Source: Vicinamibacteria bacterium
Lineage (GTDB): Bacteria; Acidobacteriota; Vicinamibacteria; Marinacidobacterales; Marinacidobacteraceae
Direction: 5' to 3'
DNA length: 64,000 nucleotides
Assembly: GCA_963668695.2 (NCBI GenBank)
Contig: CAXXLQ010000004.1
Span: forward strand, 3,520,001-3,584,000
The position numbers and the translations under genes are program-made. The notes under the pieces were generated by a model, which was given only the letters and a program-made list of their open reading frames with translations, was not told where the DNA came from and ran no database searches. The stretch's first letter is position 1. Each line of letters opens with the position of its first letter. Positions 2,838 through 63,134 of this stretch are shown here, one piece after another.

Positions 2838-3729
2838 TCAATGGAACGCCGGTATCGCAATCGCGACCATACCGGCCGCAAAAACGATGATCCCATTGCG
2901 GATGGCGGCAAAGCTCACTGCAAGTGCGTTGGTCATGATCAGGGCGATTCGCTGATTCTGCTCTAGCAGCCTGTGGATAAAGTGGCGTGAGTGCCGAGGC
3001 TGGCCAGTTCTCCCGGTGGGGGCGAGGCGCCCGGCTGACAAGGCGCGCGAGGGAGGAATACCGGGTGTATTTCGACCGAAGCGCAACGATGAGGGCCGCG
3101 AAGCGGCACGTTTCAGCCGGGATGCATCGCCCGCCGAACGCCGCGTGACTTTGTCCACAGGCTGCTAGGTAGAAGAGTCTTGTCGCGCGCAGTCCGACAT
3201 CGTCAAGATGCAGATGATCCGGGGGCGCCGGCGCCCAGACCTTGCGAACATCGAGGACTTCGAAGGCGAAGAAGCCGCCTGAGATGAAATAGATCCACCC
3301 AAGGAGAATTGCGGCATATCCGATTTGGCCCGACAATGCCGACGCTGGCCTCGCGACATGAGACGCCGGTTCCGAAAGGAGGCCAAACAGCGCGGTGGCG
3401 ATGGCCGCGGCCAGCGAAATCGCCACCAAATTCGTCCGCGCCTTGGCTTCTATGGAGTTCCTACGCTCCCGCTCTCGATCCTCGAACTGCTCCAGAACCG
3501 GATCCGTGAGGCGCGAAGCAAGCTCGTGCCGGGTGGCAACAAGGGCGTGCATGTCGTCGTCACGAACCTGCGTTTCCTCCCTGATTTCCCGCCGTAGCGA
3601 GTAGTGGAGGAGGATGGCTTGGGCCGTTACGGTGTGGAAGGTCCGGGCAAACCAGCGCCCGAGGCTTCGAAGCCGTTTCGCGATTCCTCCTCGCTCAGCC
3701 AAGCCGCGATTGCATGCGCAACATCCCAT
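2838..3729 (-). pseudogene. Multi-TM membrane protein interrupted by MITE-like element
   Basis: Removing 2967-3164 plus one CTAG restores an in-frame ...RLFYL-EQNQRIAL... with several hydrophobic helices. Start position uncertain. Confidence 0.75.
2967..3164 (+). mobile_element. MITE-like element copy 1
   Basis: TIRs CAGCCTGTGGATAAAGT / ACTTTGTCCACAGGCTG, flanked by CTAG on both sides. Confidence 0.9.
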
Positions 3730-4394
3730 CCGAGGGACTCAGCGAGCCACGCCCACTCGCCCACCGGATTAACTTCCAGATAGACGTAGTCCTCACCAAC
3801 CTGCGCCAGATCAATTGCCGCGAAGGATAGGTGGAGGCGTCGCGCCAAGCCGACGCATTGTTCTCTGACCTCGTCTGGGAGAGCGTGCTCGGTGTAAACG
3901 ACGTGATCGTGCAGAATTCTCCAGTCGCCGTCGATCGGACCATCCCGATCCGTGATTGCGGCCGCCCACACACGATCTCCGACGATCGTCACTCTCACAT
4001 CCGTCTTCGGGCGAATCTGCTCTTGGACGATGGTCGGCAGTTGGGACAAATCCGAGGTTTGTAGTGCTCCGGCGTCAAGTAGTTGAGTGAAGCAGAAGTA
4101 CTGATGGTCCTCTTGGCGCCAAAGAACGGTGTCAAGGCCCTTTAGAGCAAATCCTGCTCCTTCGGGCAGATACCGAAGCGCCGCTCGGGCCGAGTTGGTT
4201 ACTACTGTGGACGGAATCCGAAAACCGATGTCCACCGCGGTGCGGAGTTGCACCATCTTGTTTTCGGCGAGGAAGTCCGTCCGGGAATGGCACCCGGTTC
4301 TCTCTTCGTCCGGCCAGACGGCGAGCCGCCCGACCGAAAACCTGAAGCCGCGTGTGGGGCCGGGCACCATACCACCGGGCCCGGCGAAGGGGAA
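3627..4394 (-). pseudogene. ATP-grasp ligase (MvdC/MvdD/RimK-like), N-terminally truncated/degraded
   Basis: AENK..QL..A...GF.IP.T.VTN, QEQI.PK.DVRVT.VG, DWR, LEVNP.GEW.WL. The 5' end runs into the MITE dimer. Confidence 0.8.
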
Positions 4395-4739
4395 CAGCCC
4401 GTGGTGGAACCCACGTGAGCGCCGAGGCCGGGAAGGCGCCCGGCTGACAAGGCGCGTGAGGGAGGAGCCCCCACCGGGAGAACTGGCCCGGGTGTATGCC
4501 GACCGAAACGCAACGATGAGCGGCGCGCAGCGACGCGGTGAACAGCCGGTGGTGGAACCCACGTGAGCACCGAGGCCGGGAAGGCGCCCGGCTGACAAGG
4601 CGCGTGAGGGAGGAGCCCCCACCGGGAGAACTGGCCCGGGTGTATGCCGACCGAAACGCAACGATGAGCGGCGCGACGCGACGCGGTTCAGCCGGGATGG
4701 ATCGCCGGCCGAACGCCGCGTGGGTTTCATCACCGGCTG
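4395..4739 (+). mobile_element. MITE-like element, partial + full tandem dimer
   Basis: Partial copy 4395-4542 followed by full copy 4543-4739 with CAGCCGGTGG...TCACCGGCTG ends. Confidence 0.9.
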
Positions 4740-4757
4740 TTACGGTTTTGCCCCGCC

Positions 4758-61148: not shown

Positions 61149-62301
61149 CTAGCCCGCCTTGCCTCGCTCCGTCGCCCGCCCCGCTGCCGAACCCGCACCG
61201 CTCGATGTCGAACGAGCAGCCATTGTCAGTCCCGCCTTGATGAAGCCATCGAGGTCGCCGTTCATCACCCGGTCCACATCCCCCATCTGGTGGTTCGTAC
61301 GGTGGTCCTTCACCATCCGGTACGGCTGGAACACGTAGGACCGGATCTGGTTGCCCCAGGTGTTGTCGCCCAGACTCTCCTTCTGGGCCTCCTCCTGGGC
61401 TTTGCGTTCCCGCACCGCCCGGTCGTAGAGACGCGCTCGCAGAACCTTCATGGCGCTGTCCTTGTTCCGGTGCTGGGAGCGCTCGTTCTGGCAGGAAACG
61501 ACGAGGCCCGTAGGCAGATGGGTGATGCGGACCGCCGAGTCGGTGACGTTGACATGCTGGCCGCCCTTGCCGCTCGCCCGGAAGGTGTCGATGCGGAGGT
61601 CGTTTTCGTCCACCTCGATCTCGATGCGGTCGTCGAGATCGGGGAAGGCGGCCACCGAGGCGAAGGAGGTGTGGCGACGGTGCTGGCTGTCGAAGGGGGA
61701 CATCCGCACCAGCCGGTGGATTCCCGATTCCACCCGTAGCCGGCCATAGGCGTGGTCTCCCCGGACTTCGAACGTCGCTCCCTTGATGCCCGCTTCCTCT
61801 GCCGGCTGGCGGTCAAGAAGCTTGATGTCAAACCCCCGGCCCTTGGCCCAGCGGATGTACATCCCGAGCAGCATCTCCGCCCAATCCTGGGCATCGGTCC
61901 CCCCGGCTCCGGGATTGATGGTGACGATCGCGTTCTCGGAATCGTGTTCCCCGGCGAAGAGCCGGTGCAGTTCGAACTCGTCGAGCTGGCCTTCCAGACG
62001 GTCCAGATGTTCACGGAAGTCGTCGATGACGTCTTCCCCCTCCCGGATCCATTCAGCCAGCGTCTCGACCTCGTCCACCGCCCGCGCGAAGGCCGCGCTC
62101 CGCTCCAATCCCCCGAACACGCTTGCCCGGCGCCGTGAAAGTGCCTCCCCATCGCCCGATGCCGACCACACGGCCGGGTCGCTCAGACGCTCGTCGAGCT
62201 CGGCGATCTCCGCTGTCAGACCGACGGTGTCAAAGGAACCCCCGGGCCACGGTGACACGTTCCACCAAGGCTTCGTACCGGTCGAGCATTTCCTGACTCA
62301 T
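61149..62301 (-). CDS. prfB: Peptide chain release factor 2 with programmed +1 frameshift
   Basis: 23-codon ORF ending GGGGG-TTC-CTT-TGA-C (62243-62229), then +1 frame with SPF and GGQ motifs. Confidence 0.97.
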
Positions 62302-62351
62302 GGCGATTCTCCGGGGGTGGTCCCCGGCCGGCGGGAACCCCGGAATTCTAG

Positions 62352-62708
62352 CGGCCGGTGGTGGAACCCGCGTGAGCGCCGAGGCCGGCGAGGCCCAGTT
62401 CTCCCGGTGGGGGTCCGGCTGACAAGGCGCGTGAGGGAGGAATACCCCGTGTATTTCGACCGAAACGCAACGATGAGCGGCGCGAAGCGACGCGGTGAAC
62501 AGCCGGTGGTGGAACCCACGTGAGCGCCGAGGTCGGCGAGTTCTCCCGGTGGGGGTCCGGCTGACAAGGCGCGTGAGGGAGGAATACCCCGTGTATTCCG
62601 ACCGAAACGCAACGATGAGCGGCGCGAAGCGACGCGGTTCAGCCGGGATGGATCGCCGGCCGAGCCCCCACCGGGAGAACTGGGCCGCGTGGGTTCCATC
62701 ACCGGCTG
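62352..62708 (+). mobile_element. MITE-like element, partial + full tandem dimer
   Basis: Copies start at 62352 (after CTAG) and 62500. Same junction (CGCGGTGAA-CAGCC) as the dimer at 4395. Confidence 0.9.
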
Positions 62709-63134
62709 TCTGGCCGGGATGGATCGCCGGCCGAGCCCCCACCGGGAGAACTGGGCCGCGTGGGTTTCATCACAGGCTGTCTGGCCGGGATGGATCGCCG
62801 GCCGAGCCCCCACCGGGAGAACTGGGCCGCGTGGGTTTCATCACAGGCTGTCTGGCCGGGATGGATCGCCGGCCGAGCCCCCACCGGGAGAACTGGGCCG
62901 CGTGGGTTTCATCACAGGCTGTCTGGCCGGGATGGATCGCCGGCCGAGCCCCCACCGGGAGAACTGGGCCGCGTGGGTTTCATCACAGGCTGTCTGGCCG
63001 GGATGGATCGCCGGCCGAGCCCCCACCGGGAGAACTGGGCCGCGCGGGTTTCATTACAGGCTGTTAGGCCGGGATGGATCGCCGGCCGAGCCCCCACCGG
63101 GAGAACTGGGCCGCGTGGGTTTTGCCACCGGCTG
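62641..63134 (+). repeat. 7 x 71-bp tandem array of the MITE right end
   Basis: Unit GCCGGGATGGATCGCCGGCCGAGCCCCCACCGGGAGAACTGGGCCGCGTGGGTTTCATCACAGGCTGTCTG. Confidence 0.95.

Follow-up and report, generated by a model that had tools for sequence, protein, structure and literature searches.

Can a DNA word of 16 nucleotides (nt) behave as a mobile element? The question is raised by a 64,000-nt stretch (hereafter the window) of a Vicinamibacteria bacterium (GenBank assembly GCA_963668695.2, contig CAXXLQ010000004.1, positions 3,520,001 to 3,584,000), in which one short word, the core CCCACCGGGAGAACTG, recurs inside hairpin-type repeats, chiefly a 179-bp miniature inverted-repeat transposable element (MITE) and hairpins resembling repetitive extragenic palindromes (REPs). 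Counting a core match as up to 2 mismatches, as we do unless stated otherwise, the window holds 18 matches, 16 of them exact, versus 0.06 expected from 100 shuffles. They start at 3005, 4470, 4618, 8131, 21762, 27431, 27449, 27498, 56425, 62396 and 62538, followed by seven copies at 71-nt spacing from 62667 to 63093; the inexact ones are at 62538 (1 mismatch) and 8131 (2 mismatches), and every position that the original prediction, made from the letters of the window, had assigned to the core holds. Cores are derived additions to pre-existing hairpin repeats, and the unit that they form ranks among the smallest in bacteria that appear to be mobile.

The core is abundant throughout the genome under study (labelled G000; completeness 91.7%). 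The assembly (4 contigs, 4.10 Mb) contains 1,659 matches (1,325 exact, 271 with one mismatch and 63 with two), and the non-redundant chromosome 1,552 in 3.77 Mb, one per 2.4 kb, such that about 0.7% of the genome consists of copies of one 16-nt word. The invariant 16-nt core CCCACCGGGAGRACTG sits in a unit of 18 nt (C-core-G) or 19 nt, which we call the module. The base 5′ of the core is almost always C; among 1,328 exact 15-mer matches the upstream triplet is GCC in 966, and the downstream triplet is GGC in 698 and GGG in 596, reading on as GGC(C) or GGGCC. Tandem cores have a period of 18 nt, and the unit is therefore C-core-G. Cores are also more uniform than their host: when up to 3 mismatches are allowed, 72.8% of the 1,696 matches are exact, versus 53.8, 41.6, 27.9 and 14.0% for four MITE 16-mers taken for comparison. 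Five copies folded as DNA with their flanks showed no folding beyond shuffles (z -0.13 to +0.70) and no imperfect palindrome in the core; no terminal inverted repeats (TIRs) beyond CCA/TGG were found in it, and an Rfam scan of the window returned one tRNA only and no family over the MITE or core.

Cores occupy fixed positions in their host repeats. The main host, the 179-bp MITE, has the ends CAGCCTGTGG...CCACAGGCTG, and two copies folded as DNA show no fold above chance (z +0.35 and +0.40). Its lengths form a ladder of 179+18n, with modal lengths of 179, 197, 215, 233, 251 and 269 bp (75 end pairs at 179, 62 at 197/198, 51 at 215/216, 42 at 233/234, 33 at 251/252 and 24 at 269/270); the remaining indels are few, and the majority of those seen match added 71-bp units. 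Among 403 recognised copies, 303 carry 1–7 cores and 100 carry none (100, 75, 78, 74, 48, 24, 3 and 1 copies with 0 through 7 cores, respectively). In the 296 copies with all anchors, cores lie at five fixed sites, A–E, written here with "rc core" for the reverse complement:

Site A: GGC-rc core-GGC, a clean gain of 19 nt.
Site B: CGC becomes CC-rc core-GGT (+18) or CC-rc core-GC-rc core-GGC (+36).
Site C: ATA becomes GCC-core-GC (+18).
Site D: ACG becomes GCC-core-GG (+18).
Site E: GCG becomes C-rc core-GGGG (+18).

Each site yields the same junction every time. At site C genome-wide, 561 flank pairs include 259 canonical filled states, 250 empty ones reading ATACC and zero intermediates. Beyond sites A–E, insertion sites comprise site F in a second MITE family, site G (in the related genomes G008 and G019), three REP hairpin types and other sites in G018; further hosts are several small families and single loci. 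The REP-like hairpin GCCGGTC TGAA GACCGGC, to which two other types are related, has a strong fold (z -3.7); when empty it usually reads GACC or CACC, and when filled GGCC-core-GCC. Core insertions occupy stem positions beside the loop. Genome-wide, REP hairpins occur in compensatory stem versions, GGTC...GACC and GGTG...CACC (e.g., window 20601–20626); one version has its loop hexamer CTGAAG inverted to CTTCAG, and each hairpin adjoins a locus-specific second hairpin. The window itself contains the following:

2967 to 3164, plus strand: host MITE copy of 198 bp (179+19).
3005 to 3020, minus strand: core at MITE site A, GGC-rc core-GGC, clean +19.
4395 to 4742, plus strand: two fused MITE units, hosts of two site-C cores.
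4470 to 4485, plus strand: core at site C (ATA to GCC-core-GC); empty in haplotig C3.
4618 to 4633, plus strand: core at site C in the neighbouring MITE unit; haplotig C3 is empty here too.
8131 to 8146, minus strand: diverged core (2 mismatches, including A to G at core position 12, A12>G) in a REP-like hairpin stem.
20601 to 20626, plus strand: empty REP-like hairpin GCCGGTC TGAA GACCGGC (fold z -3.7).
21762 to 21777, minus strand: core at site C of a MITE in minus orientation (about 21655–21856).
27431 to 27464, minus strand: tandem pair of cores with an 18-nt period at site B (+36).
27498 to 27513, plus strand: core at site C of the same MITE as the tandem pair (about 27387–27622).
37348 to 37360, minus strand: partial core, first 13 nt, at the left edge of a repeat of the 30-copy family 2.
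50281 to 50459, plus strand: empty 179-bp MITE.
56425 to 56440, minus strand: single core at site B (CGC to CC-rc core-GGT, +18).
59029 to 59202, minus strand: empty MITE of the other TIR subtype; genomes G001, G004, G009 and G014 lack the whole element at the orthologous site.
59464 to 59690, plus strand: second MITE family, empty; in G004 its internal hairpin is filled (ATC to CCC-core-GT, +18).
62396 to 62411, minus strand: single core at site B.
62538 to 62553, minus strand: core with 1 mismatch in the next MITE unit.
62642 to 63122, plus strand: 6.8 tandem 71-bp units (MITE right ends), 98% alike, with a site-D core in each (seven cores from 62667).

Arrays resembling that at 62642–63122 are found at several other places in the genome.

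These junctions bear on how the module enters its targets. The original prediction had correctly separated the clean 19-nt additions, at site A and in the REP hairpin, from the junction changes at sites B, C and D, and had recognised the empty MITE copies at 50281 and about 59029 and the diverged core splitting the REP-like hairpin at 8131. It had also read the GCC and GGC brackets as a target duplication, which they are not: most insertions overwrite 2–3 bases of the target and lengthen it by a net 18 or 19 nt, and at sites B, C, D, E, F and G 2–3 target bases are replaced for a net +18. Because ancestral ATA, ACG, ACC and ATC are overwritten, the flanks were not copied from the target. The flanks themselves vary beside the core (GCC/GCC, GCC/GG, GGC/CCC and CCC/GT). 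A classical MITE is rejected as a class for the module, which has neither TIRs beyond CCA/TGG nor a true target-site duplication.

The polarity of these changes is read from a single related genome, in which the host MITE is present and multi-copy cores are not. Of the 28 genomes of the family, 24 contain the core word. It is multi-copy in four genera, g1 (15/15 genomes), g2, g4 and g5; genera g3, g6 and g7 have zero or one hit, and outside the family the word is not multi-copy. The core-bearing clade consists of sponge-associated Acidobacteriota of the class Vicinamibacteria. Across the four genera the core is letter-identical, with both forms at position 12 (A12 and G12) in several of them; in genomes G018 and G019 the word occupies different positions in the same MITE and also further repeats, and G019 holds 72 cores and G043 19. 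Conversely, G020, a one-contig genome of the sister genus g6, has one core match genome-wide and at least 43 copies of the main MITE (40 of 91 candidates scored) at 77–81% identity, nearly all 179–180 nt long; three of them, aligned, show the empty states ATA, ACG and GCG. Because core-free MITEs of this length carry the empty states, the 179-bp form is ancestral and the overwritten bases are real.

This distribution also disposes of the concern, raised with the original prediction, that the word might be a library adapter, a primer or an assembly artefact. The assembly does hold haplotigs and an overlapping chromosome end, and no positive evidence for an artefact was found beyond these. The 24 genomes differ widely in contig count, and the word also occurs in named records from several projects; contigs of other public runs cover core-bearing MITE regions (an observation at the level of regions, not of core letters); and cores show natural variants and fixed positions inside repeats. 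We regard an artefact as excluded.

The redundant parts of the assembly provide filled and empty alleles of single loci. The last ~144 kb of the chromosome contig (C4) repeats its first ~148 kb at about 99% identity, and contigs C1 and C3 each give a second version of chromosome regions (97.6–99.9% identity), C3 spanning window 1–18141; together these alternative versions total about 290 kb, in line with the contamination figure of 9.3%. At about ten loci the versions differ in the presence or number of cores. They include a REP hairpin at C4:11089 with a clean difference of 19 nt, a site-B difference of +18 nt with a neighbouring base change, and a tandem with two cores versus one. At window 4467 and 4615 the chromosome reads GCC-core-GC where haplotig C3 reads ATA; all other flank bases are identical, and the two alleles share even a locus-specific variant 10 nt away.

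Comparison among species gives the same picture. In anchored alignments with G001 (about 95% identical), G004 (about 92%) and G008 (about 89%), we found 8, 8 and 2 in-place presence/absence rows and 14, 10 and 5 shared cores, respectively; most of the other cores lie in non-orthologous or poorly aligned elements (46, 70 and 28). Orthologues of the MITE at 50281 exhibit three states: empty in G000, filled at site D in G004, and in G001 doubly filled at site B with sites C and D fused through their cores. Indeed, cores in one MITE can recombine together, deleting the intervening DNA. In the second MITE family, the change from ATC to CCC-core-GT occurs at two different loci. Cores are thus gained and lost in place at orthologous loci, and the states at the loci examined within the genus fit no single simple tree. 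Host elements vary as well: the 198-bp MITE at 2967–3164 is missing from contigs of two other public runs, in which 2962 is joined to 3165, and this host MITE is therefore polymorphic between populations. Contigs of four public runs over the window break at MITEs and showed no core-level alleles, and the depth of the RNA run over MITEs is not assignable to a single locus.

Could these patterns reflect one ancestral insertion per repeat family, followed by host amplification, slippage and ordinary gene conversion only? Cores do spread passively when the repeat that hosts them, MITE or REP, is multiplied: many have clearly been inherited along with their MITE, 18-nt and 71-bp tandem duplications are evident, and site E is tied to MITE subfamily gamma (Cramer's V 0.47; 23/34 filled copies). 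However, cores also arose at many distinct sites. At least 10 such sites lie in at least 4 unrelated repeat families, with other sites in other genera, and in-place differences occur at unique REP loci. Among the 296 copies, 30 of the 32 possible combinations of states at sites A–E occur, and the fill states of A–D are near-independent of MITE subfamily markers (V mostly ≤0.2), whereas the markers themselves are mutually linked (V 0.20–0.60). These results largely refute the single-ancestor scenario, to which we give a very slim chance.

Variation within the core further indicates that copies are made from copies. The A12>G change accounts for 180 variant positions (the next commonest variant for 35) and is unevenly spread over sites: 79/211 first copies at site B, 43/187 at A, 2/274 at C, 0/309 at D and 0/58 at E, with 20/94 in the hairpin type REP1, 4/35 in REP3, 14/217 in other contexts and 1/142 in second tandem copies. 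Position 12 is therefore no general hot spot, and the variant has been carried between unlike sites, which argues that cores were made from genomic copies and not from one fixed template. The same variant divides the +19 type of insertion (GCC...GCC, with either variant) from the +18 type (A12 only).

Nearly all cores lie within intergenic repeats: gene-like open frames cover 58% of the chromosome yet contain 209/1,552 cores, and the subset of in-frame cores that was inspected consists of MITE or REP copies at frame edges. Plus- and minus-strand cores are equally frequent, with no replichore bias and no orientation bias along the chromosome; both strands are mixed in all eight chromosome bins and in every site class. 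One possibility is that the word is a recognition site, such as an uptake signal or a protein-binding site, whose insertion alleles are driven by biased uptake, recombination or selection. The density of about one per 2.4 kb, the balanced orientations, the letter-for-letter conservation among genera, the uniformity above the surroundings and the presence of the competence gene ComEC in G000 are consistent with such a role. However, ComEC is common in bacteria (10/14 control genomes), the word is always an 18–19-nt insertion within repeats and never accrued by point changes, its rarity in gene-like frames is unfavourable, and recognition would explain retention and not insertion. We consider this explanation improbable.

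A stronger competitor is a dedicated trans-acting machine, which would identify the 16-nt core and transfer or write it into the stems of hairpins. Candidates would include a transposase or recombinase that has escaped recognition, a recombinase directed by a guide RNA or an enzyme that carries a template. In that case the module would be a genuine non-autonomous transposon that needs only ~16 nt in cis. This possibility, which we rate nearly as likely as the template switching discussed below while holding it to be doubtful, draws on several observations: a single sequence is inserted, and its junctions are reproducible per site; the core is identical in four genera and absent from three genera of the family, one of them (that of G020) with the same MITE; it is more uniform than its host repeat; and its states are independent of MITE subfamily. 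On the other side, the variable flanks and overwritten bases are unlike clean cut-and-paste, and the A12>G spread contradicts a single fixed template.

Searches for the enzyme bear on the same question. The original prediction had named a RAYT (REP-associated tyrosine transposase) of the HUH type, a reverse transcriptase and an IS110-type recombinase as possible writers. In G000, neither of the first two was found: both candidates scored for Y1/RAYT (Y1_Tnp, PF01797) gave 0 matches and there were 0 candidates for RVT_1, which leaves a retro-element or templated insertion by reverse transcriptase without its enzyme in this genome. TnpB likewise reached 21.7 bits at its best domain hit, under the 26.3-bit cut-off. 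An IS200/IS605-type element was rejected on the same grounds (no Y1_Tnp and no TnpB above cut-off in G000) and on the lack of strand polarity.

The IS110 family was also rejected as the source of the module. G000 has a single IS110-family element (C4:482067–483880, with a 428-aa frame), inserted in a REP3 hairpin at GAGGTC^CGGCG. Three copies examined in G004 and G008 likewise lie at GAGGTC^CGGCG of REP3, whether the hairpin is filled or empty, and relatives carry as many as 11 copies in targets of this type. IS110 genes occur in 11/28 genomes, all in core-bearing genera (0/7 in g3, g6 and g7), which counts in favour of a dedicated machine. However, the insertion point is a different hairpin position from that of the core, and the recombinase is absent from the core-bearing genomes G019 and G043, so that the association between cores and IS110 most simply reflects shared dependence on REP targets. 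An IS110/IS1111 derivative is rejected on these two counts.

Nor was a parent element recovered. The original prediction had considered the core as the footprint of a larger element, and had pointed to a partial copy near 37347–37363, where 13 nt of core (37348–37360, minus strand) indeed give way to unrelated sequence. The search for families with half a core yielded this left-half family only (family 2; 30 copies, 13 nt; window 37150–37363, minus strand), which consists of a REP half, 13 nt of core, ~110 nt of unrelated sequence starting ACCCTCATGATCGGGTCC and a REP3 hairpin that often holds a full core. Its hypothetical unsplit site has 0 occurrences, and no right-half family was found among repeated families, so that a footprint of a larger element is unsupported; nor was a master copy found, which counts against a dedicated machine. 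The family-2 repeat adjoins a 313-aa open frame (37402–38343, minus strand). We also considered a DDE_Tnp_1 insertion sequence (IS) of ~1.47 kb as an autonomous partner of the MITE. It was rejected because the 33–35-nt TIRs of its near-identical copies (C4:2955083–2956552 and 3588666–3590139) are unrelated to the MITE ends; this comparison covers one two-copy element, and five other DDE_Tnp_1 hits lie outside it.

A more specific form of the dedicated-machine reading holds that the 16-nt word is the complete cis part of a new class of mobile element, whose putative writer, a protein or ribonucleoprotein, is confined to the four genera and would recognise the word, insert the 18–19-nt unit in hairpin stems and overwrite 2–3 bases. 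We regard this joint proposal as unlikely.

What, then, copies the core? Our tentative preference, held with a little less than even confidence, is that the module is a genuine, very small propagating repeat of the small-dispersed-repeat (SDR) kind, copied by template switching and short-patch conversion at replication forks stalled by hairpins. The template-switch step is our best guess and is unproven. Quasipalindrome-associated and template-switch mutagenesis, like microhomology-mediated templated insertion, produces short templated insertions at hairpins, with microhomology junctions and overwritten bases. We favour it here because the flanks offer G+C-rich microhomology, the sites lie in stems beside loops and tandems have an 18-nt period, and because junction bases are overwritten, flanks vary, cores recombine with one another and no RAYT, reverse transcriptase or TnpB gene was found in G000 above cut-off. 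In outline, replication or repair synthesis would stall within the stem of a hairpin repeat, and the growing strand would switch through GCC/GGCC microhomology to another copy of the module, copy it and return, overwriting 2–3 target bases. Short-patch conversion among paralogous repeats might then shuffle filled and empty states, and a core could be lost when its GCC flanks slip against each other, or when the other arm of the hairpin serves as the template for a correction that brings back exactly ATA, ACC or ATC; such stem restoration would explain the pristine empty states. No dedicated enzyme would be needed.

Several observations weigh against template switching. Such events normally copy nearby, varied sequence, and they are not known to have raised a single fixed word to some 1,600 copies; here only one 16-mer is ever inserted, where generic switching should paste other sequences too. 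The letter identity of the core in four genera, together with its uniformity above that of its host, suggests recognition by a conserved factor. Single-nucleotide polymorphisms 3–10 nt away are barely linked to fill state, which is odd for ordinary gene conversion, and the junction outcome is constant per site. The switch itself is inferred. The central proposal of the original prediction stands, namely a very small, mobile-like unit added secondarily, in both orientations, at several MITE positions and in unrelated REP-like hairpins; the target duplication, the named enzymes and the parent element are not supported.

The window holds other repeats as well. At 31688–32683, immediately upstream of an open frame of 1,425 aa, a 32-nt unit is repeated in tandem 31 times (87% matches), and similar short-period arrays occur near C4:172200, 422950 and 574350–575170. 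Two adjacent paralogous gene copies at 11243–18643, about 4.5 kb apart, are 80–87% identical and contain internal repeats.

Among known systems, the module appears to behave most like an SDR, its closest analogue. Elhai and colleagues reportedly described, in 2008, SDR1–8 of Nostocaceae with lengths of 21–27 nt, and SDR4–6 are reported to be predicted hairpins. In their passages on these repeats, several papers hold the SDRs of Nostocaceae to be very small mobile repeats and describe SDR5 as inserting between the 3rd and 4th bases of the HIP1 octamer, as occurring in no HIP1-enriched cyanobacterial genome outside the Nostocaceae lineage and, in a 2026 paper, as still of unknown function (PMC5861425, PMC4390886, PMC13756078 and PMC3116915); one passage gives SDR5 a length of 21 nt (PMC13756078). 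Both SDRs and the module are very short dispersed repeats at defined positions, are regarded as mobile, are lineage-restricted and have no known enzyme or function. Presence or absence at orthologous loci, a mark of SDRs, is shown by the module between haplotigs and between species. They differ in host (cyanobacteria versus Acidobacteriota) and in target, the HIP1 octamer of those SDR5 passages versus MITE and REP hairpin stems in which 2–3 bases are overwritten. The module is smaller, with a 16-nt core in an 18–19-nt unit versus 21–27 nt, and its core does not fold by itself (z about 0), unlike the reported predicted hairpins of SDR4–6. The likeness is one of description, and no similarity in sequence is expected.

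Other systems share fewer features. REPs are palindromic 20–40-nt units moved by a RAYT (Y1 HUH) enzyme. Like REPs, their mosaic combinations (bacterial interspersed mosaic elements, BIMEs) and the REPIN–RAYT systems of paired REPs, the module is short, intergenic, highly repeated, hairpin-associated and part of mosaics of small motifs; in contrast to them, its core forms no hairpin, it is a passenger inside REP-like hairpins, and no Y1_Tnp gene was found in its genome. The DNA uptake sequences of Neisseriaceae and uptake signal sequences of Pasteurellaceae are 9–12 nt long, arise mostly by substitution and are common inside genes. The module resembles them in its ~10^3 copies per genome, use of both orientations and exact conservation in related genera, but is 16 nt long, borne by insertion and restricted to intergenic repeats. 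ISs that target REP hairpins include IS1397 and the IS1111/IS110 group (Tobes and Pareja 2006 and Clement et al. 1999, as referenced in a passage of PMC3116915). The IS110-family element described above also inserts in REP-type hairpins, but those ISs are 1–2 kb long and encode their own enzyme, whereas the module is 18–19 nt long, encodes nothing and uses another hairpin position. A literature search with the 16-mer and shorter parts of it on both strands returned no match, and one with clade and repeat terms returned nothing on the phenomenon.

Very small mobile repeats have reportedly been described once before, in cyanobacteria, in 2008. The module would be a second, independent case, in another phylum, and one with unusually clean features: host lengths quantised as 179+18n, cross-genus identity, two variants that serve as tracers of copying, and filled and empty alleles within one assembly. 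A practical consequence is that short-read assemblies break at every MITE. Because G020 is a natural control, with the host MITE and without multi-copy cores, the search for a writer becomes a comparison of gene content. If an enzyme exists, no transposable unit known would have a shorter cis requirement than that of this enzyme, which might serve for writing short tags. If the dedicated-writer reading is true, it would also give a handle on the movement of cyanobacterial SDRs. If there is no enzyme, the module would show that a bare oligonucleotide is able to act as a selfish replicator by template switching alone.

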